IMG/VR virus record: IMGVR_UViG_3300028550_003611
Coordinates: 1 to 52,878 of that record
DNA length: 52,878 bases
DNA from: a virus
Lineage: Duplodnaviria > Caudoviricetes
Reading direction: 5' to 3' (one strand)
Positions 25,053 through 48,986 of this stretch are shown here, one piece after another; positions within the stretch are counted from its first letter, which is position 1; every line of letters begins with the position of its first letter. The position numbers and the translations under genes were made by a program. The notes beneath the pieces are model-generated. The model was not told the origin of the DNA. It searched no databases and worked only from the letters and a program-made list of their open reading frames with translations.

Positions 25053-27338
25053 TTATGACGGCTTAATAGACATTACCGTCTGCCCTTTAGGAATTTTATT
25101 TTTTTCCTTTTCTAAAGCTTTTTCCTCTGATAATTTTTTATTGTGTGCTATTATATCATTACGATTATCCTTATATCTTTGTATTTGCTTTTTAGTCATC
25201 CCCTTTAAACCTAAAGACGATCTTAACTTTCTTACTGCAGGTCTCCCATACGGAAATTTCTTGACACCTTTCTGAGCTTTACGCCTAACACCTCCTCTTC
25301 GTAAATTATACTTACTAGAATTTTTTCTCCCCCCTAGTTTAAATTCTGGACCCCCAGAAGTAGGATCATTGTTTTCTTCACCTAAAACTGTGATTGCTGT
25401 TCCTGCAGCAGCACCTGTTATAACAGGAGAATACTTTAGAAGATTCATAAGAGAAATAGCTTTTTCTGTTTCTGAGCCCCCTTTAAGAATTTTAAATAAG
25501 TCTTCCCCTCCTTTAGCTTTCATAGCTTCTTTTAAAACTTCAATTCCATCGACTCCAGCTTCTGAGAGTTCTGAAAAATCCCCAATAGCAATTTTTGATT
25601 CATCCAAATGCGACATCCCTGAAAATCGTTTATATCCATTTATCTCGGTTGAAAGAAACTTTCTTACTTCTTGAGTTCGTGCTGTAATTTCTTCTGCAGT
25701 AGCATAATATTTATTCAGACTCTCATCAGGTTGATAATATCTATTACCTTTAGTAACAGGAGAATATGCATCATCTACAAAAAGAGAGAGTTTATCTTTA
25801 ACAACTTTACCTGCATCAGTCTTTAAAAAGTGAAAAGTATTTTTATGATTTAATTCATGAATTCCTGTTGATGTAATACCCTCTTTGTTATACGTTTCCA
25901 ACCAATGAGTCTTGTCTCCTTTATTTTTTCCCCAAAGATTTTGCACAAAGGTTTTAGTTTTACCTTTAGACAGAGGATAAGCAAGTTCATTTACAAAAGC
26001 TTTATCTTTAATAGCTCCCCAAGATGAATGATCTGGCAGATATACTCCCCCAGACTCTGATATATGTGAAGATTTGTGTGCATTATGCCCTTTCTCAAGC
26101 GTACTTTTAGCTCCTTTATCAAAAACTTTACCTATATCATTTCCTTCTGCCATTGATTTTTCTGCAGCAAAGGCATCTCTTACAGCATCATCCCCATACT
26201 TTGCTATTAAATCTTTCATAGGATCCATACTGTTTTTAGGATTCCATAAAGGATCACTCATTATTTCAATTTGCTTCTTATTTATTGTAGGATATAACTC
26301 CTCAAAATGTTTTCGTATTTTAGGATCTTTATAAAATCCTTGACTAAATTCATCTGCTTCTTTTAGTGCAGAATTAAATTCTTTTTTAAACGGTGATTCT
26401 AAAATCTGTCTGCCCTTTATTCTTGCTGAAGACATATTCTTTAAATGATTTTTAACTGGGGCAGATACACTTTTAAGTCCTCCTTTAATTGTTTCTTTAA
26501 CTGCTGATTGTCCTGGAATTACTATTCCTGGTAGTGCTCCTAGAGTATTAAATCCAGCTTCTAAATATTCTCCTCTACCTAAATTTCCTGCAACCCTACT
26601 CCCATAATCTACCCATGCAGCTGGGTTAACAACATCAAGAGCCATATCTTGAGGAGTTTTCCCAATACCTCCCCTTGCGTCATACTCCGCTGGAGTTAAA
26701 CTTAATCCTTCTGTTGCAGGATGACTAAGTGCTTTCCAAGATTTAATTGGGGAACCAGCCATTTCTAAAAATCCTACTTCTTTTGTTTCATCTTTATCCG
26801 GGGCTTGAGAAATTGTACCTTGATCATGAATTTTATCGTACAATTCTGTTTTTTTATCAATTTCTTTTTTAGTTTTTACAACTTGTGCAAAATTCGCTCC
26901 TCCATCCGTTGCATCTAATAAACTAGAAACACTAGGAACATTTACTTTAGTATTGTCTGATTTAGTAGTAGTGCCTGTTACTAAATTTTGACCTATTGGG
27001 GAACCATATTTGTCTAACCCATTCTGAGCTCTTATTCTAGAGTTCTTTTTCTTTGCGTATTCAGGACTTAACAGTATCCCTTGCTCAGCTTTCTTTCTAC
27101 TCCAAAACCTAAATGGTTTTCTCTTGCTCCCTTTTTTACGACTTTTTTCTTTTCTACTTTTATTAGTACTAGAGTTCTCACTTGTTGTACTCCCATCTGG
27201 TTGATGACTTACATCTTTATTGTCATTATTACCATACGTTCCGTTTGTATGATTAATCTTATTTAACTCCGTACGGTTACTTATTGCCTTTTTAGAAGAT
27301 TGAAAATCTAAATATTCTTGTCTGTAGTCTCTCCCCAT
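25053..27338 (-). CDS. Mosaic 761-aa protein: degenerate HNH-like N-terminus, zincin metallopeptidase motif, basic tail
   Basis: RDYRQEY...NKDVSH...ENSSTN; GIHELNH (25845-25859) followed by YY...EEITAR. Confidence 0.6.
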   Translation of the reverse strand: MGRDYRQEYLDFQSSKKAISNRTELNKINHTNGTYGNNDNKDVSHQPDGSTTSENSSTNKSRKEKSRKKGSKRKPFRFWSRKKAEQGILLSPEYAKKKNSRIRAQNGLDKYGSPIGQNLVTGTTTKSDNTKVNVPSVSSLLDATDGGANFAQVVKTKKEIDKKTELYDKIHDQGTISQAPDKDETKEVGFLEMAGSPIKSWKALSHPATEGLSLTPAEYDARGGIGKTPQDMALDVVNPAAWVDYGSRVAGNLGRGEYLEAGFNTLGALPGIVIPGQSAVKETIKGGLKSVSAPVKNHLKNMSSARIKGRQILESPFKKEFNSALKEADEFSQGFYKDPKIRKHFEELYPTINKKQIEIMSDPLWNPKNSMDPMKDLIAKYGDDAVRDAFAAEKSMAEGNDIGKVFDKGAKSTLEKGHNAHKSSHISESGGVYLPDHSSWGAIKDKAFVNELAYPLSKGKTKTFVQNLWGKNKGDKTHWLETYNKEGITSTGIHELNHKNTFHFLKTDAGKVVKDKLSLFVDDAYSPVTKGNRYYQPDESLNKYYATAEEITARTQEVRKFLSTEINGYKRFSGMSHLDESKIAIGDFSELSEAGVDGIEVLKEAMKAKGGEDLFKILKGGSETEKAISLMNLLKYSPVITGAAAGTAITVLGEENNDPTSGGPEFKLGGRKNSSKYNLRRGGVRRKAQKGVKKFPYGRPAVRKLRSSLGLKGMTKKQIQRYKDNRNDIIAHNKKLSEEKALEKEKNKIPKGQTVMSIKPS

Positions 27339-27339
27339 A

Positions 27340-28563
27340 TTAATATAGTACAGTTATTGTTCCGTTAAATTGAAACACACTTGCGTTCATAGAACTGTGT
27401 GCTGTTATAGTATAGACGTAAGTTCCTGTAGCAACGTCAGCATCCCACTCATCTATTGACGATGTACTTATCCATACAAGCCCACCCCATCTATTGTAGA
27501 TGCGAGTCTCCCATTGATCCCAACAAGCTCCGTCTGAAACAACCATCCAAGTATCATTCCATCCATCCCCATTAGGGGTTACAACATTTGGGGCAAAGAT
27601 TGAAGTCTCGTCACAAGGAAATGCTTCTGCACATTGTTCCCCCGTTTCACAATCTATATAAATAGATTCATATACAAAATCAGTTATAGTGTATGTATTA
27701 TAAACGTAGAGATACTCATATACAACCGTCTCTACATACATCGTGTCAGTTAAATAAATATATTCAAGCTCAACAAGAGTGTCTGTTTCTATCAACACAA
27801 TAGTATCGTATAGATACTCAATTATGTCTACATACTCAATTACTTGTACAGTGTCTGGGGGTAATTGAACATACTCTATCAATGTGTCCACTTCTGTAAT
27901 GTATAGAGTGTCTGTTGTTATCCACTCAACATCTATATAAATCGTATCAATAACATCTACATACACAGTATCACACGAAGGTGGGGCACAATATATAGCA
28001 GTGTTATTAGACAGGTCTACGTCAGGATAGTTCTGAGTTTGGTTAAACCCTGGATTCAACGCCCAACCTCCTTCAGCTATAAAAGCTGTGCGAGATAAAT
28101 TAATTTGCCACACAACTAACTCAGTACATAAAGTATCATTAGCTAATAGTTCTGCCCAACAATCGTTTGTACTTGCCCCTGTATCATAAACATTAGCACC
28201 CCAAGTATCACCATCGCTAAGAATCTGATTACCGTAAAGAGTAAAAACTTTAAACGTCCAACCTGGATGATTAACACCTGTTAGACAATCCATCCAATTA
28301 TAATCTAACCCTTCTACATGCAGCCCTAAAACAATATGAGATACTGTTGTGTTGTTAGTTACGTGTGGGCTAGAACTATTATCGCAAGTAGTTCCTACAC
28401 TAGTAAACTCGTTGCACCCACAGTTCTCACTGTTGATAGCCTCAACCACAATGTCACCCGTGGTAGCATCCCAACTATTAATAGCTACATCACATTGTGC
28501 GTTTACAGTTGTAGTAATAAAAATACTACATAAAATAAACAATACAAATTTTAATTGTTTCAT
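27340..28563 (-). CDS. Secreted protein with gliding-motility / T9SS type-B C-terminal sorting domain (CHU_C-like)
   Basis: Signal peptide ...TTVNA|Q; DT(V/I/L)Y-type acidic repeats; C-terminal IFAPNVVTPNGDGWNDTW...IYNRWG...W...GTYVY...GTITVLY. Confidence 0.85.
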   Translation of the reverse strand: MKQLKFVLFILCSIFITTTVNAQCDVAINSWDATTGDIVVEAINSENCGCNEFTSVGTTCDNSSSPHVTNNTTVSHIVLGLHVEGLDYNWMDCLTGVNHPGWTFKVFTLYGNQILSDGDTWGANVYDTGASTNDCWAELLANDTLCTELVVWQINLSRTAFIAEGGWALNPGFNQTQNYPDVDLSNNTAIYCAPPSCDTVYVDVIDTIYIDVEWITTDTLYITEVDTLIEYVQLPPDTVQVIEYVDIIEYLYDTIVLIETDTLVELEYIYLTDTMYVETVVYEYLYVYNTYTITDFVYESIYIDCETGEQCAEAFPCDETSIFAPNVVTPNGDGWNDTWMVVSDGACWDQWETRIYNRWGGLVWISTSSIDEWDADVATGTYVYTITAHSSMNASVFQFNGTITVLY

Positions 28564-29039
28564 GATTCTATAGTTGAAAAATCAATATATTTAATAGTAA
28601 CATCTTGCCCTTTTTCTAAAACAGCAGCAATTCGTGGGTATACATTAAAGTAAGCTTCAGTGCTGTTACCTATAAACCCATTAGTTTTAATACTGTTATT
28701 TACTTGCGAGTTGCCCAATAATAAACATCCCGCAGTGTCTTCATCAGTATTGCCACAATGTATAAGGATATACTTAAAATTAGGGACATCAAGTACATGA
28801 AGCATACCAAGATGTATATCAGCAAACCTCTTGGAATACTTAGTATGATGTCCTCCAACAATCCTAAGACCAAGACAGTACTCTCCTTCAGGTATACAAG
28901 TTTCTCCCCACACTTTTTCAGTGCGGCTTTCATCTTCGAGAGTATAGCATAAAAATTCACGTTTTCCATTGTTTATTTCAAATAACATTCCGTTAGTTGA
29001 GTCCGTTCCGTAGTTAAATCTTAATACTTCTAATTGCAT
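28560..29039 (-). CDS. DUF5675-family protein (L,D-transpeptidase-like; candidate endolysin)
   Basis: CYTLED, CIPEGEY and ILIHCGNTDEDTAGCLLLG (His...Cys) motifs. Confidence 0.8.
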   Translation of the reverse strand: MQLEVLRFNYGTDSTNGMLFEINNGKREFLCYTLEDESRTEKVWGETCIPEGEYCLGLRIVGGHHTKYSKRFADIHLGMLHVLDVPNFKYILIHCGNTDEDTAGCLLLGNSQVNNSIKTNGFIGNSTEAYFNVYPRIAAVLEKGQDVTIKYIDFSTIES

Positions 29040-29389
29040 GATCCGTAATTTGATAAAAAAGTTAATAAGTCGTTTACATCTACATCCCCATCTTCATTAA
29101 AGTCTCCAGCGCAAACTGGTTGAACACAGGAAGGATAGTTAGGGTGCTCTGTAAGCAAAGGATATACAAACCCATCCCCGTTTAAAACAAAAGCAGTTCC
29201 TATGTCTGCACAGTAAATTATAGTATATCCTCCCGCAGGTAATCCAAAGTAATGAGCTTCCCCATCGCAGTCTTGATACTGGAAATTTGTCCATTTTTCT
29301 GCCCCTACAGAAGTAAAGACATGCTGATTGCATTGGGCAATAGCAGTTAAGCTAAATATTAAAAATATTAAAGTAATTATATATTTCAT
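29030..29389 (-). CDS. Small secreted protein with C-terminal dockerin/EF-hand-like motif
   Basis: Signal peptide ...TAIA|Q; CAGDFNEDGDVDVNDLLTFLSNYG. Confidence 0.75.
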   Translation of the reverse strand: MKYIITLIFLIFSLTAIAQCNQHVFTSVGAEKWTNFQYQDCDGEAHYFGLPAGGYTIIYCADIGTAFVLNGDGFVYPLLTEHPNYPSCVQPVCAGDFNEDGDVDVNDLLTFLSNYGSCN

Positions 29390-29412
29390 TGTTTTTTGTT
29401 AAGTCTATGCAG

Positions 29413-29420
29413 TAAATATA
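29413..29420 (-). promoter_or_regulatory. Possible Bacteroidota-type -7 element variant for the minus-strand cassette
   Basis: TATATTTA (one mismatch to TAnnTTTG) about 24 nt upstream of the ATG at 29389. Confidence 0.4.
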
Positions 29421-29433
29421 CAACTTTTTAAGT

Positions 29434-29441
29434 TATCTTTG
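29434..29441 (+). promoter_or_regulatory. Bacteroidota sigma-A -7 element
   Basis: TATCTTTG matches TAnnTTTG; not followed by an ORF. Confidence 0.6.
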
Positions 29442-29444
29442 CGC

Positions 29445-29695
29445 CGAAACCGCTTCCTAGTGACCGGCCTCAGGTAATCAAAAAGAGGCCTAGACATCGG
29501 GTTACAGTAACTGTCAACATAGTCAGCGAACGTCGTCCCCGGTAGTTTCAAAATAAATGTTAATATAAAACTCAGGTGGGAACCAGGCTATAAGGTGTCG
29601 CCCCCACACAGGCTAAAAACGGTGAGTGGAAATTTAACACTAGACAAAAAAATTCGAAAAATCGAAGGGGCCTAATTGTATTTGGGCGACAAATT
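29445..29695 (+). ncRNA. Candidate structured non-coding RNA (~250 nt)
   Basis: ORF-free, GC-richer than its flanks, several complementary segments, directly downstream of a -7 promoter element. Confidence 0.45.
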
Positions 29696-29706
29696 TAAAA
29701 ATATTT

Positions 29707-29748
29707 TGTAACATAGCTTGTTACATAAGAGAAAGTTTTATATATTTG
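29707..29748 (+). promoter_or_regulatory. Late-operon promoter with overlapping palindromic operator
   Basis: TATATTTG at 29741-29748; TTG at 29718-29720; TGTAACA-N5-TGTTACA at 29707-29725. Confidence 0.65.
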
Positions 29749-29764
29749 TTGCAAACCAAACATT

Positions 29765-30052
29765 ATGCCAACAACAATAAACTTTCAGCCCACTAGAGAT
29801 TGGGTTGTGCTCCCAGTAAAGAATACTGAAAAAACAGAATCTGGAATTATTCTCCCAGAAAGTGTTCAAAAAACAATTAAAACTAACATTCTAACTGTAG
29901 TTGCTACAGGCCCTACTTGCGTAGACATCAAAGTTGGTCAAACAGTTATGGTCCATCCTACAACAGAAGGATTGATTATTGAGGTTGATGGAACCAGCTA
30001 TGTTATGGTCAATGAATTCATGATTTGTGGTATAATGCCAGAAAAAAAGTGA
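29765..30052 (+). CDS. groES: Co-chaperonin GroES
   Basis: PTRDWV, KTESGIILP mobile loop, VVATGP, IKVGQTV; 95 aa. Confidence 0.9.
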   Translation: MPTTINFQPTRDWVVLPVKNTEKTESGIILPESVQKTIKTNILTVVATGPTCVDIKVGQTVMVHPTTEGLIIEVDGTSYVMVNEFMICGIMPEKK

Positions 30053-30294
30053 AAGGAACTGTAACTATATCAATAAAAGATTACGACTCCCTTAGAGGGG
30101 CAGAAAGCTCTTCACTAAAAAAAGATGAGAGACTGATTAGAGCTGCAAAAGAGCTCGAAGTCTTTCTCTCATTTCTTGTTACAAGAGAAAATATTGCTGA
30201 ATATCTAGATGAATTTAACAGGCAATCTAAAGGAACAAAAATTAATCTTATTGAAGGCAGAGCTAAAATAATATTCGAAAATGAGGAAAATTAA
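30049..30294 (+). CDS. Hypothetical protein
   Basis: GTG start overlapping the groES stop. Confidence 0.6.
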   Translation: MKGTVTISIKDYDSLRGAESSSLKKDERLIRAAKELEVFLSFLVTRENIAEYLDEFNRQSKGTKINLIEGRAKIIFENEEN

Positions 30295-30595
30295 TATTAA
30301 AACAGACAGTACTCTTAAATACTTTCAAGTGTTTAATGGGATTTTAGAACTTACAGATAAAGAACTTAAAATTCTTTCTGAATTTGTAGATTTAAGCATT
30401 ACAATTAACTTATGTTCTGCTGAAAACAAAAAATTAGTGTCTAAAAAGTTAAATATAAAAGATCCTAATACTCTTAACAATTACGTTAAAAGACTTAAAG
30501 ATAAAGGCGCAATTAAAAAAACTAAAGATGGGTATGCTTTAGCTGGACTGTTAAAAAAAGAAGAATATGTTGTATTAGCAATACACAATGTCTAA
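30281..30595 (+). CDS. Winged-HTH-like DNA-binding protein
   Basis: LTDKELKIL...NTLNNYVKRLKDKGAI pattern. Confidence 0.6.
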   Translation: MRKINIKTDSTLKYFQVFNGILELTDKELKILSEFVDLSITINLCSAENKKLVSKKLNIKDPNTLNNYVKRLKDKGAIKKTKDGYALAGLLKKEEYVVLAIHNV

Positions 30596-30728
30596 AATTA
30601 CATTAATAGAGGACCATTTTATAATGGATCCCTGGTCTTTGTTAGTATTATACTCACATAAAGGAGAAGCAATACAAATAGTAATTTATCATACAAAAAC
30701 TGAAGATGGAGAAGTTATCAATTTATAA
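30588..30728 (+). CDS. Small hypothetical protein (46 aa; not in the ORF track)
   Basis: Manual translation MSKITLIEDHF...GEVINL bridges the gap between neighbours. Confidence 0.45.
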   Translation: MSKITLIEDHFIMDPWSLLVLYSHKGEAIQIVIYHTKTEDGEVINL

Positions 30729-30966
30729 AATGGTTAAATCTTTTGCAAAAGAGGTAAAAGAATTTGCTAAAGAAGGAGCCCCGCATGTAAGTGCAACAGA
30801 ATATAAAGAACGTTTAGATGCTTGCAAAGGATGTCCTAATTTTAAAATAGATATTGAACGATGCGGGCTGTGCGGTTGTTTAGTAGAACACAAAGCTAAA
30901 TGGGGCACTACTGATTGCCCAGATGATCCATCAAGATGGAAACCAATTATTAAAAAAGAGATTTAA
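30706..30966 (+). CDS. Cys-rich metal-binding protein (DUF6171-like)
   Basis: RLDACKGCP...CGLCGC...CP...W. Confidence 0.65.
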   Translation: MEKLSIYKMVKSFAKEVKEFAKEGAPHVSATEYKERLDACKGCPNFKIDIERCGLCGCLVEHKAKWGTTDCPDDPSRWKPIIKKEI

Positions 30967-30967
30967 G

Positions 30968-31186
30968 ATGGATAAACGAATAATTATTCAAAAATTAGCA
31001 ACTAAATACTCTTTATCGTTTAAAAAAGTAGAAGATATTGTGTATTACCAGTTTAAATACGTTTCTAAAGTATTTAAAGACAAAAAATTTGAATCTGTTA
31101 GACTGCCTTACTTAGGTAAATTTCATGTTGTACCTGGTAGATTAGAATATTTACAAAAAAATGAAAGATCTAATAACAGTAAGTAA
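30968..31186 (+). CDS. HU/IHF-like DNA-binding protein
   Basis: IIQKLA...VRLPYLGKFHV; lies upstream of the terminase as in crAss-like phages. Confidence 0.7.
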   Translation: MDKRIIIQKLATKYSLSFKKVEDIVYYQFKYVSKVFKDKKFESVRLPYLGKFHVVPGRLEYLQKNERSNNSK

Positions 31187-31655
31187 AAACGTAGTTATAC
31201 CTTCTGCGTATGCTTTAGCTATTCCAGAGTTTGAGTCTCTCTCTACCCCAGAGTTAGGAGCCGTATATTTTTATGCAGATCATGACTCTCCTTATGCAGT
31301 ATATGACAAAGGAGAAAGATTAAAAAAAATAGAAAAAGACTTAAAAATTAAATACACCCCAAAATTACGTAAAGCAATAGATAAATACAATAATTTGTGT
31401 GAAACGTCTGCTATTAAGCTGTTAAAAGCTGCAAGAACGTCTATTCAGAAATTAGAAAAATATTTTGAAACTATTAATTTAGATATATTAGATGATAACG
31501 GTAAACCTATCTATTCCGCAAAAGATCTTATTGCTAATCTATCTAATATGGGTAAAGTTGTTAATGGGCTAGAAGAACTAGAAGAATTAGTAAAAAGACA
31601 ACAACAAAAACAAACAAATAGGGGAGGAGTAGTAACTAATAAGTACTCTCAATGA
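31161..31655 (+). CDS. Protein upstream of TerL (candidate small terminase)
   Basis: Position and ATGA overlap with TerL; function inferred. Confidence 0.5.
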   Translation: MKDLITVSKNVVIPSAYALAIPEFESLSTPELGAVYFYADHDSPYAVYDKGERLKKIEKDLKIKYTPKLRKAIDKYNNLCETSAIKLLKAARTSIQKLEKYFETINLDILDDNGKPIYSAKDLIANLSNMGKVVNGLEELEELVKRQQQKQTNRGGVVTNKYSQ

Positions 31656-33607
31656 AATTTGTTGATTCTACACAGTACTCTCCGGCTGCAAACCATTACA
31701 TAAAGACAGGGTATTACACAGATATACATCCAGGCACTAAAGAATACTTTGATCATTGGGATCAGGAAGCTAACAGATGTTTATATGGCTATTTAGGAAT
31801 GTCTGGCTATCATTATTTTTATTTAAACTATTGCCCTATTGACAGGGCTGTAGACGAGATACTACCAGACGGAACAGTGCAGGCTAGAAGAGATAGAACA
31901 TTTCCTGCATTTTATGACGGAGATTTTAAATATTACAACTGTATAGATCGAGCGCGTAAGGAAAACAAACACATGGTTGTATTAAAAGCTCGTAGAAAAG
32001 GTTTTTCGTACAAAGCAGCAGCAATGTTAGCACGAAATTACTTCCATGTTAGGAATAGTAAGAACTATGTTTTTGCCGCAAGTAAAGAGTATTTGATTGG
32101 GGACGGGTTATTATCGAAAGCTTGGGAGTTCTTAAGCTTTATTGATGACAATACTGCGTGGACACAGCCCAGGCTACGAGATAGAGAGATGTCTAAGATG
32201 TCTGGATATAAGAAAAATGTTAACGGGGCAGACGTTGAACTTGGTATGAAGTCCCAAATAATGGGTGTATCTCTTAAAGATAGTCCAGATAAAGTTCGTG
32301 GTAAAGCTGGAGAGCTTATATTCTTTGAGGAAGCAGGATCTTTTGGGGGACTTTTAAAAGCGTGGGAAGTAGCTATGCCTACCATGAGGCAAGGTAGCAA
32401 AACTCTTGGGACTATGGTTGCTTTTGGGACAGGGGGTACTGAGGGATCAGACTTTGATGGAATGGAAGAACTTTTTTATCACCCAGACTCATATGATTGT
32501 TTGTCTTTTGAAAACGTATGGGATTCAGGGTCAATGGGAACAACCTGTGGGTACTTTGTCCCTATTCAAGAAAACTTAGATGGGTTTATAGATGATAATG
32601 GTAACTCTATTGAAGGAGAAGCTAAGATATTTATAGATAAACAACGAGAGAAGAAAAAAGGAGCTAACGATCCAAAAGCTTTAGATCAATATGTAGCAGA
32701 GCATCCGTTTTCTCCGCAAGAAGCAACACTTCAGGTTACAGCTAATCTATTTGACATTAACTCCCTTAAAGAACAATACAATAAGATTCGAGCGCATGGC
32801 TTAGAGTCTGAAGGAACTTCTGGGGAAGTGTACTATGACAAAGATAGCAAGATTGTATTTCGTCCGGGCGGAAAATCTGTGCCAGTATATAAATTCCCTC
32901 ACAGAAAAGGAGACAAAACAGAAGGTGCTATAGTTGTATACGAGCATCCTTATAAAACTGAAGGAGGAGAAGTGCCGCATAATTTGTATATTGTCTGCCA
33001 TGATCCGTATGCTCAGGAAAAGTCTACAACAAATGAATCTCTTGGAGCGGCTTATGTGATTAAACGAGTAAATAATCTTTCTAAACCTGATGACATAATT
33101 GTAGCTAGTTATGTAGGAAGACCAAATACACAAGATGAGTACAACAAAAATTTATTTATGCTGGCTGAACTCTACAATGCCAAAATTGGATTCGAGAACG
33201 ACCGTGGAGAGCTTATTGCTTACGCAAAAAGATTTAGGAAGTTATATAAGTTACAAGAAGAGTTTGAAATGTTGGATAAGAGAGAACTCAGATCCAAAAA
33301 TGTAAGACGTCAATATGGTATGCATATGACTGAGCAAAGAAAACGACAAGGAGAGCTTTATATTAGAGATTGGTTGCTTACCCCAAGAAGTGCATCAGAA
33401 GATGGAACCGTTAAATTAAATTTGCATACAATTTATGACCCAGCATTGTTATTAGAGTTAATTAAATTTAATCAAAAGGGTAACTTTGACCGAGTTATGG
33501 CGTTTATGGTAGGTATGTATCATACGCGAGAGTTATATAATAGAGAAGTAGTTGAAATTTTAGATGATCGCTCTGGGGATACCTGGTTCGACAGTATTTA
33601 TAAGTAA
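31652..33607 (+). CDS. terL: Terminase large subunit
   Basis: HYFYLNY, LKARRKGFSY (Walker A), FEEAG (Walker B), nuclease HDPY and GNFDRV. Confidence 0.95.
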   Translation: MKFVDSTQYSPAANHYIKTGYYTDIHPGTKEYFDHWDQEANRCLYGYLGMSGYHYFYLNYCPIDRAVDEILPDGTVQARRDRTFPAFYDGDFKYYNCIDRARKENKHMVVLKARRKGFSYKAAAMLARNYFHVRNSKNYVFAASKEYLIGDGLLSKAWEFLSFIDDNTAWTQPRLRDREMSKMSGYKKNVNGADVELGMKSQIMGVSLKDSPDKVRGKAGELIFFEEAGSFGGLLKAWEVAMPTMRQGSKTLGTMVAFGTGGTEGSDFDGMEELFYHPDSYDCLSFENVWDSGSMGTTCGYFVPIQENLDGFIDDNGNSIEGEAKIFIDKQREKKKGANDPKALDQYVAEHPFSPQEATLQVTANLFDINSLKEQYNKIRAHGLESEGTSGEVYYDKDSKIVFRPGGKSVPVYKFPHRKGDKTEGAIVVYEHPYKTEGGEVPHNLYIVCHDPYAQEKSTTNESLGAAYVIKRVNNLSKPDDIIVASYVGRPNTQDEYNKNLFMLAELYNAKIGFENDRGELIAYAKRFRKLYKLQEEFEMLDKRELRSKNVRRQYGMHMTEQRKRQGELYIRDWLLTPRSASEDGTVKLNLHTIYDPALLLELIKFNQKGNFDRVMAFMVGMYHTRELYNREVVEILDDRSGDTWFDSIYK

Positions 33608-37444: not shown

Positions 37445-38896
37445 ATGGCATTGACGCAAGTACTAAAAACGTACTACAACGATTCGCAGATGACCGACAC
37501 TAATTCGTTGGTTAATGCGCTAATGGAGAAGCCAGAAGAGCTTTCTCCCATTATCACGCACCTAGCCGGGCGTGAAGAAAAAAAATTCCCTCTCTCATTT
37601 TTGACAGAAGGAGTCGGTAATACTAAATCTATTGATAGATTTGAATATGAATATCGTGTAAAAACACACGAGATTAACGTTCGCCCAGTAATAGCTAACA
37701 CTGGTGGAACTACAGCAGTAGGTACAGGAGGAGCTCCTTTTACTATTACTTTCCCAGACCGTTGGTTTGTATTCCCATACACTCTTGTTTCTGAGAGCGG
37801 AGTACTTGCTCGTATTATGGAAGAGCCTAAGCAAGTTTCTGGTGGATACCAATACACAATGAAGCTTGTATCTCCGGATGCTACAGCTCTTTCTAATGCT
37901 GGAGATTTAGCTCCAGGTGCAATGTGGGGTCAACTATACGCTAACGTAGGAATTGACTTCTCTCGTGGAAATGCTTCTAACTGGAGTGCTCCAGGTAAGG
38001 TTCGTTCTAAAATTGGTACAATTCGTAAGTCTTATCAGTTCTCTGGTAATGCTCGTGATTATGTTGCTGAGTTTAGCTTGCCGCTAAAAGCAGGTTCTAC
38101 TACTAAGTTGTGGATGGATTACGAAGAGTACCGTCACATGCTTAAGTTTAAGGAAGAGTGTGAAACTTATTACTGGTATGGACAGAAGACTCATGATGAT
38201 AAGGGTAACACCTTAATGGTTGATGAGAATGGACAGCCAGTTGTTTCTGGTCCTGGTCTTCTTGAGCAGATCATTAATAAAGATACATACTCTACTTTGA
38301 CACAGTCGAAAATTGAGAATGTTATCGGTGATTTATTCTACGGTATGACGGATGCTACAGACAAGCAGGTTACTCTCTACACTGGTGTAGGTGGAGCTCG
38401 TGAGTTTGATAAAGCTATGCGTAATTACTATGCTGGAGGAACAACTAAGTCTCCAGGTAATACATACTTGCAGACTTCAGAGCCTAAGTTTATTACAGGT
38501 TCTGGACGTAACTTAGGAATTTCTGGTTACTTTACTTCGTACGATCACATTGATGGTCATACAGTAAATGTAGTTAAAGTTCCTATGTTTGATCACGGCG
38601 CTGTAGCTCAAGCTTCTAAGAGACATCCTGAATCAGGACTTCCAATGGAGTCTTACCGCATGGTGTTTGTAGATCAGTCTTCTTATGATGGAGAGAATAA
38701 TCTTCAAATGATTAATAAGAAAGGTCGTGAAATGTTGCGTTGGGCAGTAGCCGGTTCAGTAGTTCCTAAAGGGTTCTCTTCAACTGACTCTCGCGCATCT
38801 GATATAGACGGTGCTTCTGTGCACATGTTGAAAACAGCTGGTATCCTGCTTCGCAGATTCGATACTTCGCTTGATTTAACTTGCACTGCATCGTAA
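37445..38896 (+). CDS. Major capsid protein (crAss-like)
   Basis: 483 aa; FPLSFLTEG, GPGLLEQI, TGVGGAREF; strongly biased codon usage; followed by a terminator. Confidence 0.9.
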   Translation: MALTQVLKTYYNDSQMTDTNSLVNALMEKPEELSPIITHLAGREEKKFPLSFLTEGVGNTKSIDRFEYEYRVKTHEINVRPVIANTGGTTAVGTGGAPFTITFPDRWFVFPYTLVSESGVLARIMEEPKQVSGGYQYTMKLVSPDATALSNAGDLAPGAMWGQLYANVGIDFSRGNASNWSAPGKVRSKIGTIRKSYQFSGNARDYVAEFSLPLKAGSTTKLWMDYEEYRHMLKFKEECETYYWYGQKTHDDKGNTLMVDENGQPVVSGPGLLEQIINKDTYSTLTQSKIENVIGDLFYGMTDATDKQVTLYTGVGGAREFDKAMRNYYAGGTTKSPGNTYLQTSEPKFITGSGRNLGISGYFTSYDHIDGHTVNVVKVPMFDHGAVAQASKRHPESGLPMESYRMVFVDQSSYDGENNLQMINKKGREMLRWAVAGSVVPKGFSSTDSRASDIDGASVHMLKTAGILLRRFDTSLDLTCTAS

Positions 38897-42226: not shown

Positions 42227-42688
42227 ATGGGATTAAAAAATTTACAGGGAGATACTAGATTAAAAGTAACAGCTTCAAACCTAGCACCAAACTCACGTTA
42301 CACTATAGAGGTAACAAATTTAACTAAAGGAAATACAGCTATAATTAAGAAGCCTAGTCGTGGCGGAAAGTTAACAACTGTTTTGTCTGCAGATACTCGT
42401 GGGGTAAGTAAAGTAATTATTAAAAACAGCAAAGGGGCTGTAATAAAATCCTATGTAACTGTAGGTACAGCAGAAATAGAATGTTGTATAGCTAAACTAG
42501 TAACGGACTCAATTAATTGCACATGCAAGTGTGATAAGTGCATAGAAGATTTACAACGTGCACAAACAATACGTTTATTACTACAAGCTGCTCAATACGA
42601 AGCATCGTTAGGATTAGAGATTACTACTCAAGAAAAATATACTAAAGCTAAACAGCTGTGCACAGAAGTGTGCGCATGTGGATGTTAA
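42227..42688 (+). CDS. Cys-rich structural protein (tail ring-like)
   Basis: ECCIAK, CTCKCDKC and terminal CTEVCACGC. Confidence 0.55.
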   Translation: MGLKNLQGDTRLKVTASNLAPNSRYTIEVTNLTKGNTAIIKKPSRGGKLTTVLSADTRGVSKVIIKNSKGAVIKSYVTVGTAEIECCIAKLVTDSINCTCKCDKCIEDLQRAQTIRLLLQAAQYEASLGLEITTQEKYTKAKQLCTEVCACGC

Positions 42689-42689
42689 C

Positions 42690-45600
42690 ATGGGACAAAG
42701 TTTAGACACTACACGCACAAGAGTTGCGTATGTAATACAAGAATTGGTAAGTGAGTCTACTGTAGCAGGTATACAAGAAACTTTATCAGATAATACCCAC
42801 ACAGTTGTAGCTGTATACGCTCCTTCTCAATCTTTTCCTGCATCTTTAGGCACAAGATATGATCCACTTTTGTCAGCGCACGTAAGCAACGTTACAACAA
42901 AAAATACTACTGACAATACTACACAGTATAATGGCAATGTTGAGGATATGCAAATCTCTACTGAATACCGTGATGTAGCGTCTGGAAACACTATAGAAAA
43001 TAGAAAAATTTCTATTTTTATTCCTCTCTCTTTTTTTAACGCAAACAACTCTTCAAGTCCTTTGCTACAGGGAGTGCAAGTGGCGCTTAAATTTGCTACT
43101 AGAACTTATAATGTTCATTTAATTATTAAACCTTTATTAAATGCAAGTGGATCTACAATTGAAGGTAGAATTAAACTTGATCAAACTATTTTATTTAAAA
43201 ATTATAATACTTTAAATGTACCTGTTATATGTTTAAAGGGAGATGAAACTGCTATAGCTGCTTATAACTCAGTTAAACAAGGAGAATTTTCAGCAAGTAC
43301 TTCTTCAGTTAAACTTTTACAAAAAACGGTTAATACTCAAGGAGAAGAAGAACATTTAGTAACTAAAAATATTCCATACGCGTTTCCTCATTGGTTCTCT
43401 ACTTTTGATTCTTCTGATATTATAGCAAGTGTAGGTGGACAAAATTATTTATCTGCTGGAACATTTGGAGGCACTAATTTATATGTGTCCCCAATATCTT
43501 GGATTTTTCCATGGGAAAACCCTAGCTATCATCCTAATAGCGGTATTTTTGGAACTACTAATATTAACAATTCTTCTATTGAAGCTGGTGCAGAAAATTT
43601 AATTCAATTAGATGAATTTTTTAAGATGCATGAAACTGGGTCTGAAAATTGTTGGGGGGAAAAATATGGAACTTTTAGTTCTTATACTCCAAACTCTACA
43701 AATGCAGATCTTTTACACTACCCTGCAATCTGGGGGCCAAGTCTAATCGGACTTATAGGATTTGATAATTATAATACACTTCCTTCAAACCCTATCTCAG
43801 TTTTTAATCTGTTTACAGATGGTGATTCTCAGTTTGTTATTCCGATTTTACAAACTTTGTATGTAGACGAAATAAACAGTATTTTAATAGATAGACCCAA
43901 TAATATGTTTGGGGAAATTTTAAATAATCTTGAAACTTCTCAAATTATTCAATTTGCAAGTAAAATAACAAACTCTGGATTTATTGGTGCATACACAAAT
44001 GGGAATGAAAGTGCATTAAAAGGAAATGTTCCTTTACTTAATAGAGCACATTCTTTCTTTATGCCAAGAGCGGGATATAACTCTTACCAGTCCGGGGGAT
44101 ACATAACTACATGTAGATTTTTTATAGGCACTGACATTAGCGTTGCTAATCTTAAAAGTCTTTCAAAAAGCAGTAAATTTTTAGAGTTTGCAATTAACTC
44201 TGCTAATTTTCCAGAATTGCACCCTGGAAACTATATTCAACAAGAACCTGTTGCTAGCAACGATAACTTTGGTAGAAGCATGGAGTGTAGCAGACTTGCT
44301 ACAAAATTGTTTTATAATATTCAAACTCCTTTAGAATTAGAATCTAGTAATTCATCAAATATTAGTAATATATATGGAGCGTACAACACAAGATACACAG
44401 GAGAAACTGCTAATACTGCCTTAAACACAGATGTATTAGATGCTTTCCAAGCAAAAGCATTTTCAAATTTATCTACAACTTTTAATGACGCTTTAGGAAG
44501 CAACATGCCAGCAGGTTATGGGGCTTTACCTACTAAGTCTATATCTTTTCAAGATGTAGTTGTTTTACACAATGTTGTAGGTTTTGGAAATGACTCTACA
44601 GTTACCCCGAATAGCACTTATGCTAACAATAGTAGCTATACTTTTCCTACAAATTCTTTTAACTTATTTCCTATACATAGTACTAATGAAGGAACATTTG
44701 TAGATGATGATCCTTCTAGCACTTTTAGAGGAGAAATATTCTCAGAACGTAATAGTCATTTAGTAAATATTTCCCCGTTTGGGACTCAATTATTTACAGG
44801 AAACAGCATATTTCTTCCTTTTTACTACGGCGCTAATGACGATTACGCAGATTTAATTACGCAGACAGGTAGAACAAATGTATTTACTAACAATGGTTAT
44901 TTTGATCAAGGAGGATATAAAAGAGCTCTTTTAGCGAATCCTAATCTCGAAGGTGAGGATCCTTGGAGCGGAACTAGTAACGGAGCTTTCTCAGGCACTG
45001 TTAGTGGATCAACATTTAAAATTAAACATGTTAGTGTAACAGTTTCTGATGTTGAAAATGGATTTTATAATACTCTAAATGCTGCAGGGCTAAAAGTTAA
45101 TTTTACGTTAGATTACACAAACACTAGCAGCTCAGGTAGTACTCAACTTTTAAATTGTAAAAATGATGCTGGAGGATATACAGCTTCTAATTTAACAGAA
45201 GTTTTACAAATATTTGATTCTATAAAATATAAGCCTGGAAGGCTCTCTGATGGGTCAGCTGACTGGGCTTATGAAATTGATATTCTAGATTCTTCAGATG
45301 TAGAAAGTGCTACTATAACAGAGCTAACTTCAGCAAACAGTTCATATACTAGTCTTCATTATAGACTTAATATAGTTTTCTTAAATGATATACTTGATCT
45401 AAATGAAAGCGGGGGTTCGGCTCCCCATACAAATATTATTCCTGATTTAGAATTAAAGTTGCCTCCACAAAATGCTAATCAAGGAGACGAATGGGGAACT
45501 AGACGATATGAAGGGTTTTATGGCTCGCAAGGATACAATAATGTTCCTACAGATATAAACCAATTCTCACGATTTGTTACTTCAGAAATTACATTTAAAC

Positions 45601-48600
45601 CTACAAGTAATGCAACCGGTCTTTTTGTATTTCCTCTTTTAACATACGGATCTATAAAAACTACAATTCCTGCCATTATTGAAGGGTGCACAAATTCAGC
45701 AGCTCTTAATTATAATCCAGCAGCTACTTATGATAACGGTACTTGTCAATTTTGCGATTCATATATTAATGACTCTTTACCTTCAACTATAGCTCAAGGG
45801 GGTCAAGTTTATACAAGTACAGGAATCGATGAATTTAATATTAAATTGCTTTATCCTCAACCATATAATGCAGGTTGGGGAACAGATATTAATGAAGATT
45901 GGTTTCAAGCTTTAAAAAATACTGGAACTATATATTCATCTAGACCTGCTCTTGTAGGAAATGCAGCATCAGCTTATGGGTCTCAAGATGGGTTTGATAT
46001 TGATAGCTGGAAACTTAAATTAAAATTTTTATCTTTTACAGATTCTCAAATAGCAGCTCTTATAGCTGCAAATGCGTTTACAATAAAAATTTACCCGGCA
46101 TCAGAAGAAGCTTTAGCAGCAATTCCTTTTGGGGATCTTTCAAACTCAAGTCAGAGTATAATATCTACAGATGCATTACTTAGTTCTGGGCAGCTGTACA
46201 CAAGCTCAACTTCTCACATAGATACAACTAATCTTACAACTGAGCCTTCTTCTGAAATAACTTGCAATGTTCCCCATACTACAAGTGGTCTTGTATCAGG
46301 GGCTGCATATATAATAGAAGCAAAAATAGATTACACTACTGCTTGTAATTACTCAGGGTTTAATACTACTGTATTTGTATATGGGTTTACTTGGGTAACA
46401 TATTGTGCATGTAGTGATTTTGATAATTTATATCATCTTACTCCGCACGAATGGAGTAACTCTAATCTTTTTCCAGGAATTTGGGAGAATTCAGGTAATG
46501 CTACCCCTACTCAAGTAACAAGTAACATAGGATGTTCTACATCTAATCCTACATTAGTGGGATCTGGAGACACTGGATTTATTTGTTATACAAACGATTC
46601 TCAAACTGATTCTTGTGATGATTACTGGGAGTGGTGTATGACAAACGCTTCTACAAATTGTGTACCTACAACAAACATTAATGAGCTGATAAATATTGAT
46701 GGTAATTTATTTTACCCTAGTGAAAGCGTTATTTCTCTTCATGTTTCTGGTGTATGGAACCCTGCATTTAATGCATACTATTATCCAGATGATATTCAAT
46801 ACGTTGTTAATCTTTTAGATAGCACTGGGTCTGTATTGCAATCATTAACTCAAGATGATGCAATATTAGCTACTAATGTAACCGGGGCCTTTCTTACGTT
46901 TACTACTGATTATGTTGGGGCATTCTCTCTTCAAATTATAGGGCAAAATGAGATAAATCCAGCAACTGAGGAGTACTATGAAAATATTGGTCTTAGTTGC
47001 ACACTTGAATCCGCAACGTATAACATTGTAAATGATGCATGTGAAGTTATTATTGGGTGTACAGACCCTGAAGCAAGTGTAGAAACTTATGATCCTAATG
47101 CAACTTTTACTAATAACGACTTATGTGAGTATGAACCAGAGTGCGAAGCAATTGTTATTCCTGACATTAATTTAACAATATCTCAAGTACCTGCAACTGT
47201 TACTTGCGTATCGGTAACAGAAATAATAAACGGGGTAGAGACTACTTGGGAATATCCTCAAGTGCAAAGCGATGGTTCAATAACTGTAACAGCTGTTCCA
47301 GTAAATGCAGATCTTTTTGGATCTGAAGTAATTTCTATAGGAATAGTTTCTGCAAATTTATTAGAAAATGCAGGATACTCTACGTCAGAACTTCTATCAT
47401 TCTTAATTGCAGGATTTGATACAGATGGGGGAATAGTAGACGAAACTTTAGGTTTATTTTGGTCTCCTGGTACTTTATTACCAGCAGCTGCTTCTGGAAT
47501 AACTATTGAAAATTTACCCCCAGGAGTTTATTATATAGTAGCTACAGGAAATATAGAACAACAACTTGAGTTTCTTGAAACTTCAGAATGTTTATTTCAA
47601 AGTCCTGTTATAATAGATAGTCTTCAGCAAATAACTGTACAAAGTGGGGTAATGCCTGATTGCGAAGAACCTTGTATTATACTTCCTTGTGAGGACTGGG
47701 TTTTAGGATGTACAGATGTAAATGCAGAAAATTATAACCCGCTTGCTACTCTTGAAGATGGAACTTGTGAATACGACCTTGATGAGTGTCAACAAAATCC
47801 AGATGATGAAGCTTGTATAGATTGTTTTACAGGAGAAGATTTAGGGCAACCACTTCTTAGAGGGGCATCAGAACAAAAGAATTTAGATGATATATGTGAC
47901 CCCCCAAATACTGGAGAAGGTTGCACTGATCCTTTGTCTTGCAATTATCAGCCAGATCTACCTTTAAGTCTAAGCAATAATCAATTATGTGATTATTGTT
48001 CATGTAATGAAGATCCGTTTGATCAAGATTGTTTTCCTGATTCAGGAGATTGCGATCCATCTTCTGACCCAGAATGTCAACCTATAGACGAATGCCCAGA
48101 TCCATCTAATCCGCTTTGTACTCCTGACCCGCCAACTTCTGCATGTGTTAATCCAGGAGATTGCCCACCACCACCACCACCGTGCGTATTTTTAGGAAAT
48201 TGCATAGAAGACCCAACAGTTGATGATGAAGAAGATGATGTAATTATAGATGTAGTAGATCCGGTCACAGTAACTTGTCAACTTGATTTAGGTACTGATG
48301 ATACAGGTCCAGACAGTTTTGCAGAGGTGCAGATGAATGCTTTTGCATGTATGTCTGATCAAGGGAAAAGATTGTTATGGAAACTTCGCAGTGGGATAGA
48401 GTATGATAAAACAGACTTGCTTAAGATGTCTCTTATTTCATATTTATTTATGGGAGGTACAGAAAAAACTGATCTTCCATGTTTATGGAACTGCAATGAC
48501 TTTGGGGAAACAGAAAAAAGAAGAGAAAGAGATTGTGTTGCTATATGGAAAAGTGGGGGAGGACGTTTTTGGATTAGAACAGAATTTTATATTAAAGGCA

Positions 48601-48986
48601 CAACAGTTGCTTATTTATACACTATTCGAGGAAAGGTTAAAAGAGGGTATTTTAAAGCAACTAAAGATATTGTATCTAATGGAACATCCCCAAGAACTCC
48701 AGGATCTGGATGGGGAAGATGCACAGATATTAGAGTGCGGACAAAAACTTCAAATGGTATTTCAGACGGTACTGAGGACTATTTAAAAATTATGTGGGAG
48801 TACATGACTAGATTCTGTACAAACTGCAGTATTGCAGATTCAAATGAAATTGGGTATCCAATTACTATTCCTGAAGAGGAAGAAGAAGGAGCTGATGACA
48901 CTTCACAATCTGGACTCCCAATTAAAACTATAACTAATAATCCTACTGGCATTTTAGGTGCTGATGGAGAAGAAATAACATTCTAA
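42690..48986 (+). CDS. Giant (~2100 aa) tail fibre / adhesin-like protein with GCT(D/N) Cys repeats
   Basis: Four GCT(D/N) repeats at ~45684, 47055, 47706 and 47919; Pro/Cys/Asp-rich linker. Start may be 42678 or 42690. Confidence 0.65.
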   Translation: MGQSLDTTRTRVAYVIQELVSESTVAGIQETLSDNTHTVVAVYAPSQSFPASLGTRYDPLLSAHVSNVTTKNTTDNTTQYNGNVEDMQISTEYRDVASGNTIENRKISIFIPLSFFNANNSSSPLLQGVQVALKFATRTYNVHLIIKPLLNASGSTIEGRIKLDQTILFKNYNTLNVPVICLKGDETAIAAYNSVKQGEFSASTSSVKLLQKTVNTQGEEEHLVTKNIPYAFPHWFSTFDSSDIIASVGGQNYLSAGTFGGTNLYVSPISWIFPWENPSYHPNSGIFGTTNINNSSIEAGAENLIQLDEFFKMHETGSENCWGEKYGTFSSYTPNSTNADLLHYPAIWGPSLIGLIGFDNYNTLPSNPISVFNLFTDGDSQFVIPILQTLYVDEINSILIDRPNNMFGEILNNLETSQIIQFASKITNSGFIGAYTNGNESALKGNVPLLNRAHSFFMPRAGYNSYQSGGYITTCRFFIGTDISVANLKSLSKSSKFLEFAINSANFPELHPGNYIQQEPVASNDNFGRSMECSRLATKLFYNIQTPLELESSNSSNISNIYGAYNTRYTGETANTALNTDVLDAFQAKAFSNLSTTFNDALGSNMPAGYGALPTKSISFQDVVVLHNVVGFGNDSTVTPNSTYANNSSYTFPTNSFNLFPIHSTNEGTFVDDDPSSTFRGEIFSERNSHLVNISPFGTQLFTGNSIFLPFYYGANDDYADLITQTGRTNVFTNNGYFDQGGYKRALLANPNLEGEDPWSGTSNGAFSGTVSGSTFKIKHVSVTVSDVENGFYNTLNAAGLKVNFTLDYTNTSSSGSTQLLNCKNDAGGYTASNLTEVLQIFDSIKYKPGRLSDGSADWAYEIDILDSSDVESATITELTSANSSYTSLHYRLNIVFLNDILDLNESGGSAPHTNIIPDLELKLPPQNANQGDEWGTRRYEGFYGSQGYNNVPTDINQFSRFVTSEITFKPTSNATGLFVFPLLTYGSIKTTIPAIIEGCTNSAALNYNPAATYDNGTCQFCDSYINDSLPSTIAQGGQVYTSTGIDEFNIKLLYPQPYNAGWGTDINEDWFQALKNTGTIYSSRPALVGNAASAYGSQDGFDIDSWKLKLKFLSFTDSQIAALIAANAFTIKIYPASEEALAAIPFGDLSNSSQSIISTDALLSSGQLYTSSTSHIDTTNLTTEPSSEITCNVPHTTSGLVSGAAYIIEAKIDYTTACNYSGFNTTVFVYGFTWVTYCACSDFDNLYHLTPHEWSNSNLFPGIWENSGNATPTQVTSNIGCSTSNPTLVGSGDTGFICYTNDSQTDSCDDYWEWCMTNASTNCVPTTNINELINIDGNLFYPSESVISLHVSGVWNPAFNAYYYPDDIQYVVNLLDSTGSVLQSLTQDDAILATNVTGAFLTFTTDYVGAFSLQIIGQNEINPATEEYYENIGLSCTLESATYNIVNDACEVIIGCTDPEASVETYDPNATFTNNDLCEYEPECEAIVIPDINLTISQVPATVTCVSVTEIINGVETTWEYPQVQSDGSITVTAVPVNADLFGSEVISIGIVSANLLENAGYSTSELLSFLIAGFDTDGGIVDETLGLFWSPGTLLPAAASGITIENLPPGVYYIVATGNIEQQLEFLETSECLFQSPVIIDSLQQITVQSGVMPDCEEPCIILPCEDWVLGCTDVNAENYNPLATLEDGTCEYDLDECQQNPDDEACIDCFTGEDLGQPLLRGASEQKNLDDICDPPNTGEGCTDPLSCNYQPDLPLSLSNNQLCDYCSCNEDPFDQDCFPDSGDCDPSSDPECQPIDECPDPSNPLCTPDPPTSACVNPGDCPPPPPPCVFLGNCIEDPTVDDEEDDVIIDVVDPVTVTCQLDLGTDDTGPDSFAEVQMNAFACMSDQGKRLLWKLRSGIEYDKTDLLKMSLISYLFMGGTEKTDLPCLWNCNDFGETEKRRERDCVAIWKSGGGRFWIRTEFYIKGTTVAYLYTIRGKVKRGYFKATKDIVSNGTSPRTPGSGWGRCTDIRVRTKTSNGISDGTEDYLKIMWEYMTRFCTNCSIADSNEIGYPITIPEEEEEGADDTSQSGLPIKTITNNPTGILGADGEEITF

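Follow-up and report, generated by a model that had tools for sequence, protein, structure and literature searches.

A predicted two-domain, pseudoknotted RNA ahead of the late genes of a marine crAss-like phage

Positions 29446-29681 (+ strand) of a 52,878-nt phage sequence, which is the whole stretch of DNA analysed here and is called the window below, are predicted from comparison with relatives to encode a compactly folded, pseudoknotted two-domain RNA that is a member of a new family. The preliminary description of this DNA had proposed a promoter-driven, ORF-free, structured novel phage RNA at the head of the packaging or late operon, and covariation across 74 sequences, a fixed promoter box, the lack of any Rfam match and the gene context all bear that out. 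Our best guess for its role, held with about as much belief as doubt, is that of a cis-acting leader, either riboswitch-like or antiterminator-like, that gates late and lysis gene expression, a function that we infer.

The phage and the site of the RNA

The proteins encoded in the window show it to be part of a marine crAss-like (Crassvirales) phage genome, 62% of which it covers by the record's completeness estimate. It encodes a crAss capsid protein (PF23898 Crass_capsid, 4.4e-80, 37445-38893), a crAss ring protein, a large terminase of 651 aa (PHROG terminase, 3.5e-125) and a P22-like portal. The terminase is 39-42% identical to its 15 listed matches, which all come from uncultured crAss-like (cr*) phages or faecal phage records. 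The replication module, including DNA polymerase A and helicases, is read leftward, and a late module that comprises GroES, terminase, portal, capsid and ring protein is read rightward from the RNA; the phage also encodes a 5'-3' exonuclease. Translation table 11 leaves the window's ORFs open. No Pfam match was obtained for two giant ORFs (15-6056, 2014 aa, and 42678-48983, 2102 aa), and our guess is that they encode putative virion RNA polymerase or cargo proteins.

The RNA lies in an intergenic gap between divergent genes and is arranged with its neighbours as follows.

28560-29039, - strand: DUF5675 gene, candidate lysin (Pfam PF18925, E 1.9e-26)
ends at 29389, - strand: ORF of 119 aa with a signal-peptide-like start, left border of the gap
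29390-29764: intergenic gap of 375 nt
29434-29441, + strand: putative -7 box TATCTTTG of the RNA promoter, TAnnTTTG type
29446-29645, + strand: predicted RNA core of about 200 nt, followed by a conserved tail to about 29681, about 235 nt in all
29646-29681, + strand: 3' tail, with an A-rich spacer, a hairpin (29653-29666), a G-run (29667-29670, AAGGGG) and TTGTAT (29676-29681)
29741-29748, + strand: putative -7 box TATATTTG of the groES promoter, separate from the RNA promoter
29765-30052, + strand: groES-like (Cpn10) ORF (Pfam PF00166, E 1.1e-10), first ORF of the rightward late module

The gap (29390-29764) holds no ORF longer than 48 aa, and the + strand of 29200-30100 showed no terminator-like site. 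The RNA interrupts no ORF; it is intergenic and begins at the predicted promoter. An ORF-free stretch of about 250 nt between two promoter elements, GC-richer than its flanks, had been described before, and both points hold, the two elements being TATCTTTG and TATATTTG and the GC fraction being 0.52 at 29450-29549 vs 0.21-0.30 on the flanks. Taken alone, the window sequence folds no better than its shuffles (z-score -0.64 on the + strand and -1.28 on the - strand). These single-sequence statistics lie within chance; the support for the RNA comes wholly from its relatives.

As to the gene that follows groES, its start is most likely a GTG that overlaps the groES stop codon (GTGA, 30049-30052) and not the listed TTG at 30025; homologues of its protein in relatives start at the equivalent point (MNGTVTISL...).

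Relatives, fold and covariation

A protein search with GroES identified 46 related loci from viral contigs. In a blastn search with the 375-nt gap, query positions 39-292, i.e. from the promoter box onward, were matched in 23 of the 46 loci, while two more loci matched only 28 nt beside groES. A further 57 viral and 83 metagenome contigs came from two pattern scans based on invariant blocks. An nhmmer profile detected 160 copies in 189 loci, 138 of them full length, and these 138 together with the window represent 73 distinct sequences from uncultured viral and metagenome contigs; the family also has divergent clades with scores of only 83-120 bits. When a covariance model was derived from a 15-sequence alignment, it matched 74 of 87 sources, once each, and its single match in the window covers 29441-29667 with 224 bits. 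The RNA is single-copy in the window and in all three whole records searched, one of which is 100% complete, and the idea of several copies per genome was dropped on finding one copy in each.

No match to the window region or to a typical member was found by blastn among 50,697 phage records, and the covariance model, used with strict filters, found none in a sample of 151 Flavobacteriaceae genomes. An exact-pattern scan of one genome for each of 185,579 prokaryote species returned three matches, which we take to be chance because none fits the nhmmer profile; the one that was read directly (L107) is unrelated sequence. As far as these searches reach, the family appears to be confined to uncultured viruses. 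A literature search found no description of the RNA, and none in the accessible part of 10.64898/2026.10.21.760802; supplementary files of papers might list candidate motifs.

Across the whole window, none of the 4227 models of Rfam 15, among them group I introns, riboswitches, 6S, Y RNA, tmRNA, RNase P, pRNA and GOLLD/ROOL/HEARO, reached its gathering score. With the threshold relaxed to E 10, there were four chance-level matches in 29000-30100, none of them relevant, and two other members, L047 and L135, gave no match at all; the only Rfam match that overlaps the tail is RnaG, with 17 bits vs a gathering score of 153 bits. The novelty suggested in the preliminary description therefore passed its Rfam check, with no family match for the window or for L047 and L135. 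Descent from a group I intron, or kinship with another known ribozyme or RNA family, had been raised there from the impression that short strings recall group I core elements, and this impression is all that speaks for it. The resemblance is unsupported, given the lack of an Rfam match in the window, L047 and L135; ARAGORN reported no tRNA or tmRNA, no ORF is interrupted, and the ten-helix architecture set out below departs from the P3-P9 order in which the group I intron core is laid out. A group I intron was accordingly rejected, and we consider any such remnant or relative extremely improbable.

The covariance-model alignment of 74 sequences yields ten predicted helices in two domains, eight of which include at least one compensatory pair.

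29446-29549, + strand: domain 1, four-way junction of P1-P5
29446-50/29545-49, + strand: P1, domain 1
29451-53/29460-62, + strand: P2, domain 1
29466-71/29485-90, + strand: P3, domain 1
29496-501/29538-43, + strand: P4, domain 1
29510-15/29522-27, + strand: P5, domain 1
29532-29534, + strand: 5' arm of the pseudoknot (GUC), 3' of P5, pairing with 29643-29645
29557-29640, + strand: domain 2, internal loop and three-way junction of P7, P8-P9 and P10, closed by P6
29557-63/29634-40, + strand: P6, 6 of 7 pairs compensatory
29571-73/29624-26, + strand: P7, 3 of 3 pairs compensatory
29576-80/29603-07, + strand: P8, stacked on P9, invariant in 74 of 74 sequences
29586-88/29600-02, + strand: P9, 1 of 3 pairs compensatory
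29612-14/29621-23, + strand: P10, a tentative helix
29643-29645, + strand: 3' arm of the pseudoknot (GAC), just after domain 2

In the 74-sequence alignment standard pairs make up 98.4% of 3441 cells, and P1-P5 are 92.7-100% paired with 1-5 compensatory pairs each. Compensatory changes occur in 26 of the 47 pairs vs a mean of 14.3 after shuffling, and none of 500 shuffles reached as many. When the 3' partners were slid by 1-3 columns as a control, at most 9 compensatory pairs and at most 50% pairing were left. Covariation was counted on the alignment fitted to the covariance model; an independent MAFFT alignment led to the same helices, and for 15 sequences RNAalifold predicted 48 pairs, of which 18 had compensatory changes. 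Since P8 is invariant, covariation cannot test it.

A mutual-information scan outside the nested structure revealed a pseudoknot of 3 bp that joins domains 1 and 2. Its first pair is G-C in all 74 sequences, its second is U-A in 70 and A-U in 4, and its third is U-A in 38 and C-G in 36, so that 222 of 222 cells are paired and two of the pairs covary, compared to 7.7-54% pairing in slid controls. According to the tree this covariation reflects at least 2 changes, i.e. few independent events. P1 joins the 5' end of the RNA to its middle and not to its 3' end. The overall pattern of conservation, in which covarying stems lie beside long invariant junctions and loops, is as in a riboswitch or ribozyme.

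The helices are also asymmetric between the strands, with 371 G-U or U-G cells in the 74-sequence alignment vs 18 A-C or C-A cells. This excess indicates that the transcript is the + strand and makes a DNA-level explanation untenable. If the region were a packaging site, a terminal repeat or a protein-binding array, or a chance structure devoid of function, a single-sequence fold no better than shuffles would be in order, but neither compensatory changes nor one-strand G-U pairs would be expected of a DNA site, and the region is more conserved than the flanking gene: the RNA core exceeds the adjoining groES in 13 of 14 loci (mean identity 0.75 vs 0.66). Such readings are already largely refuted, and we leave them hardly any weight. 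The doubt that the preliminary description itself had raised, that covariation might be absent or the region be a DNA-level element, is answered by the strong covariation and the strand-specific G-U pairs.

The window shares with its nearest relative, L002, a variant in which the P9 loop is 7 nt shorter and the tail carries an additional small hairpin. Between the window and L002, compensated changes have occurred in P1, P2 and P3, which argues that the variant with the short P9 loop is itself under selection.

Seven complementary pairs had been listed before the relatives were compared, and three of them belong to the fold, namely GAAAC/GTTTC (P1), GGCCTC/GAGGCC (P3) and GTGGG/CCCAC (P8); the last had been regarded as a competing pair and is instead a helix of the native fold. 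The other four are wrong or unconserved. GTGACC/GGTTAC, CTAGTG/CACTAG and TGTCGCCC/GGGCGACA clash with P2, P4, P6 and P9, which covariation supports, and TTCGA/TCGAA lies inside the insertion common only to the window and L002. The 3' arm of the 8-bp pair TGTCGCCC/GGGCGACA (29596-29603/29684-29691) is located in unconserved spacer and is absent from L002. Formation of this pairing would disrupt P8 and P9; the complement occurs in this contig only and would be either a chance pairing or a lineage-specific alternative.

Promoter, tail and gene context

The RNA is preceded by a box of the type TAnnTTTG, which we take to be the Bacteroidota-type promoter -7 consensus. Among the 72 distinct members with at least 60 nt of upstream sequence, the exact motif is present in 55 and TAnnTT[TC]G in 70. 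The box ends about 5-8 nt before P1, though the sequence farther upstream falls into several unrelated contexts, and the motif is not enriched in the window (75 matches vs 67 expected). That a promoter box at fixed spacing drives the RNA, which would begin just downstream of it, is directly supported by these alignments. The groES box is likewise conserved just ahead of groES in all three settings, whether it comes after the RNA or after the stop codon of the amidase gene, or the relative lacks the RNA altogether.

Two further boxes were seen on the - strand. A near-consensus TATATTTA at 29412-29419 lies back to back with the RNA promoter, is kept in relatives of the window type, where it reads GTAAATATAC on the + strand, and probably drives transcription of the leftward 119-aa gene. 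From the second, TAAATTTG at 29690-29697, an antisense transcript would run through the RNA; relatives do not share this box, and its occurrence may be due to chance.

The tail, AAGGGG(G)...UURUAU, is present in all 74 aligned members whatever gene comes next; the hairpin at 29653-29666 is lineage-specific. The tail is nearly invariant, and neither mutual information nor covariation, computed between tail and body, revealed a convincing pairing partner for it; the pairing of its G-run with the C-run of P4 in some single-sequence folds constitutes no evidence. A role of the tail as a Shine-Dalgarno site was rejected, as the distance from the G-run to the start codon varies between about 13 and 38 nt; a clear, properly spaced motif of this kind was found upstream of none of the 47 window genes.

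The gene next to the RNA lies on the same strand in all 73 distinct members. It encodes an Amidase_2 lysin in 56 (PHROG 'lysis/amidase', 8.5e-51) and a DUF5675 candidate lysin, unrelated to Amidase_2, in 3, which places a lysin gene of either family directly after the RNA in 59 of the 73. In these 59 members the start codon is located about 13-38 nt past the G-run, with no terminator between. The amidase stop codon abuts the groES promoter, also without a terminator, which makes read-through into the late operon likely. Nine members, the window included, have groES next, after a spacer of 77-88 nt; no ORF directly follows the RNA in them, and about 50-60 nt of spacer lead to a complete conserved groES promoter. 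Five divergent members have the RNA at the head of other, partly structural operons, including a virion structural protein.

Several spacers of the groES type (L073 3826-3870, and those of L066, L099, L171, L111 and L108) include a 9-bp all-A/U hairpin followed by a U-rich run. It overlaps the -33 region of the groES promoter and shows one compensated change in L108. The hairpin might weakly terminate the RNA, or else arise as a side effect of the groES promoter; we did not adopt it as a terminator of the RNA, because of this overlap and because amidase-type members are without it.

The main rival to a cis-acting leader takes its evidence from the same genes. A free-standing, trans-acting RNA might be a ribozyme, a component of an RNP, or a decoy or sponge directed at a host factor or a defence system. 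Its own promoter would drive it, termination or processing would free it from a longer transcript, and the downstream gene would be a neighbour and not a target. Such an RNA would explain why the element stays intact in the 9 of 73 members, among them the window, in which no ORF comes directly after it, why the conserved tail is a fixed part of it whatever gene comes next, and why the same lysins are found in relatives that lack it; the promoter and the compact, pseudoknotted two-domain fold with invariant loops also suit it. It is harder to reconcile with the missing terminator before the next start codon in the 59 lysin-type members and with an element that is always co-oriented with the downstream operon and at its head. 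No trans-acting Rfam family is similar to it, and Pfam scans of the window ORFs revealed no TROVE/Ro-type or other RNA-binding partner. On balance we regard a trans-acting RNA as possible, though rather unlikely.

A block of genes beside the RNA (27340-29389, - strand) encodes, in leftward orientation, a 407-aa protein, the DUF5675 candidate lysin and the 119-aa protein. Because relatives have a lysin directly after the RNA and on its strand, this block looks inverted or relocated in the window. The 407-aa protein has a CHU_C sorting domain of type IX secretion and a long, acidic, repetitive middle rich in T, Y and V. In its accessible part, bioRxiv 10.64898/2026.04.11.717860 proposes DUF5675 as a C82-peptidase-like lysin domain.

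A fuller lysis cassette is found between the RNA, or its empty site, and groES in some relatives (L030 1-3270; L007 1035-2954). The lysin precedes two or three small ORFs there; their products, of 85-176 aa, start with a hydrophobic or lipoprotein-like stretch and are possible holin or spanin candidates. L030 has, in addition, a 498-aa ORF between the RNA and the amidase.

That the RNA sits at the start of the rightward late module (lysis, chaperonin, packaging, capsid) is directly supported by this gene order. The switch from leftward replication genes to rightward late genes coincides with the RNA or lies within about 0.7 kb of it in the window and in most of those relatives whose upstream sequence is long enough. 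An 89-kb relative that is 100% complete has its one copy of the RNA about 640 nt rightward of this switch, and amidase, GroES and terminase come after it. About 10 distinct members have 4-5 kb of co-directional sequence upstream, with + strand ORFs of about 740-900 and 340-347 aa, and therefore the RNA is not tied to the strand switch.

This location bears on another explanation, a primer RNA at a replication origin, whose folded transcript would form a hybrid with the template through its G-rich tail and prime leading-strand synthesis by the family A polymerase. ColE1 RNA II primes leading-strand synthesis in this manner, through a persistent hybrid with its template. Besides proximity to the strand switch in the window and most relatives, the conserved G-run of the tail, the DNA polymerase A and 5'-3' exonuclease encoded by the phage, and a minimum of the cumulative GC skew at this site within the profiled region (27000-32000) would agree with it, the skew being confounded by gene orientation. 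The roughly 10 members with no switch nearby, and the coding sequence that comes right after the tail in 59 of 73, argue against it, and we consider it improbable.

The leader reading and known systems

A cis-acting leader is favoured because the RNA stands ahead of two unrelated lysin families, with no terminator before the next gene, in fixed orientation and with riboswitch-like conservation. The preliminary description had suggested a ribozyme, packaging-associated or decoy RNA; the gene context would favour a leader of the late and lysis transcription unit instead. The RNA would form the 5' leader of the late and lysis transcript and act in cis; a small ligand, a protein of the phage or the host, or RNA polymerase itself could determine its folded state. 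Depending on that fold, the downstream genes would be expressed or not, as with a riboswitch or an antitermination RNA of the put/EAR type. Such a leader would help to time the expression of the lysin and of the late genes. In the window, the usual next gene, the lysin, would have been lost or moved, and the leader would now run into the groES region. According to the accessible part of PMC10136315, the late genes of Crassvirales form one unit that is read by the host RNA polymerase.

An aptamer-like fold in a 5' leader, as a riboswitch would require, is found in the ten helices and the pseudoknot, which are promoter-proximal and have a lysin next in 59 of 73 members. The position at the head of the late module, in single copy and co-oriented, would suit an RNA of the put/EAR type that acts in cis. 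The members without an ORF directly behind the RNA (9 of 73), in which it is intact, indicate that the RNA does not need the lysin ORF. Conversely, 13 GroES-bearing relatives have no covariance-model match, and in at least five of them a lysin lies directly upstream of groES, so the RNA is not required for lysin expression. Covariation supports no alternative pairing that might serve as an expression platform. Given the members that keep the RNA without an ORF and the relatives that lack it, a free-standing trans-acting RNA fits about as well, and so would an antitermination element that serves the whole operon and not the lysin.

A more ambitious version of the leader reading, which we put forward tentatively and think doubtful, takes the RNA for a sensor of a new class, posted at the start of the late module. 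It would be a riboswitch for the state of the infection or of the host, or else an RNA that makes the host polymerase resistant to termination, and it would set the timing of lysin and virion production. The crAss-like phages are among the most abundant phages of Bacteroidota, and how their late and lysis genes are switched on with the host polymerase is poorly understood; a highly conserved, pseudoknotted, single-copy RNA that stands right where the late module begins offers a concrete candidate for this switch, open to testing. Should it bind a ligand, it would represent a new riboswitch class linked to lysis timing, whereas an effect on RNA polymerase would make it the first antitermination RNA to be known from phages of Bacteroidota. 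Whatever its role, a well-supported new family, with its 74-sequence alignment and covariance model, joins the short list of complex phage RNAs.

Among phage RNAs with a known part in the virion, the prohead pRNA of phi29 is a two-domain RNA with its own promoter near the packaging genes. The RNA described here is similar in these respects, being phage-encoded, of two domains and of similar size, with its own predicted promoter near packaging genes. Unlike pRNA, it has no Rfam match and no conserved self-complementary loop pair. A pRNA of the phi29 type was rejected, the phage having a classical large terminase and a P22-like portal and not a motor of the phi29 type.

GOLLD, ROOL and HEARO are reportedly large, ornate, phage-associated RNAs of 400-800 nt whose function is said to be unknown. 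As with these, we are dealing with a phage-borne, conserved, multi-helix RNA that is known only from comparative genomics of metagenomes. It differs from them in its length of about 235 nt, in lying away from tRNA genes and at a fixed place before the late genes, and in matching none of their models.

The put RNAs of HK022 and the EAR element associated with the Bacillus eps operon are cis-acting RNAs for processive antitermination. Like them, the new RNA is transcribed first and heads an operon, here of more than 20 kb, that is read by the host RNA polymerase; it is single-copy and independent of the identity of the next gene, and EAR is pseudoknotted as well. Compared with put, which consists of two hairpins, it is much larger and more ornate, and there is no homology.

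Riboswitches of the ydaO/c-di-AMP class are found upstream of cell-wall hydrolase genes. With riboswitches and orphan candidates the RNA shares its promoter-proximal position, the pseudoknot, and invariant junctions beside covarying stems, and it too stands directly ahead of functionally related genes from unrelated families (Amidase_2 and DUF5675). Unlike riboswitches, it matches no Rfam 15 riboswitch model and has no supported expression platform, is kept in nine members with no ORF behind it, and is limited to phages (0 of 151 Flavobacteriaceae genomes).

Y RNAs were considered because of PMC10136315, in the part accessible to us; a Pfam search revealed no TROVE domain in the 48 ORFs scanned from the window, which is 62% of the genome. 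A terminal stem made of the 5' and 3' ends, as in Y RNA, is not found here either, P1 joining the 5' end to the middle.

In gut crAss-like phages, the accessible part of PMC10136315 describes lysis genes that are held back by stop-codon recoding, a control of timing at translation. If the RNA is a leader that gates the lysin, it would serve the same end, a delay of lysin and late proteins; the mechanism there resides in the genetic code and here would reside in RNA structure. Should the sensor reading be true, the RNA would be the RNA-structure counterpart of stop-codon recoding in the gut crAss-like phages.
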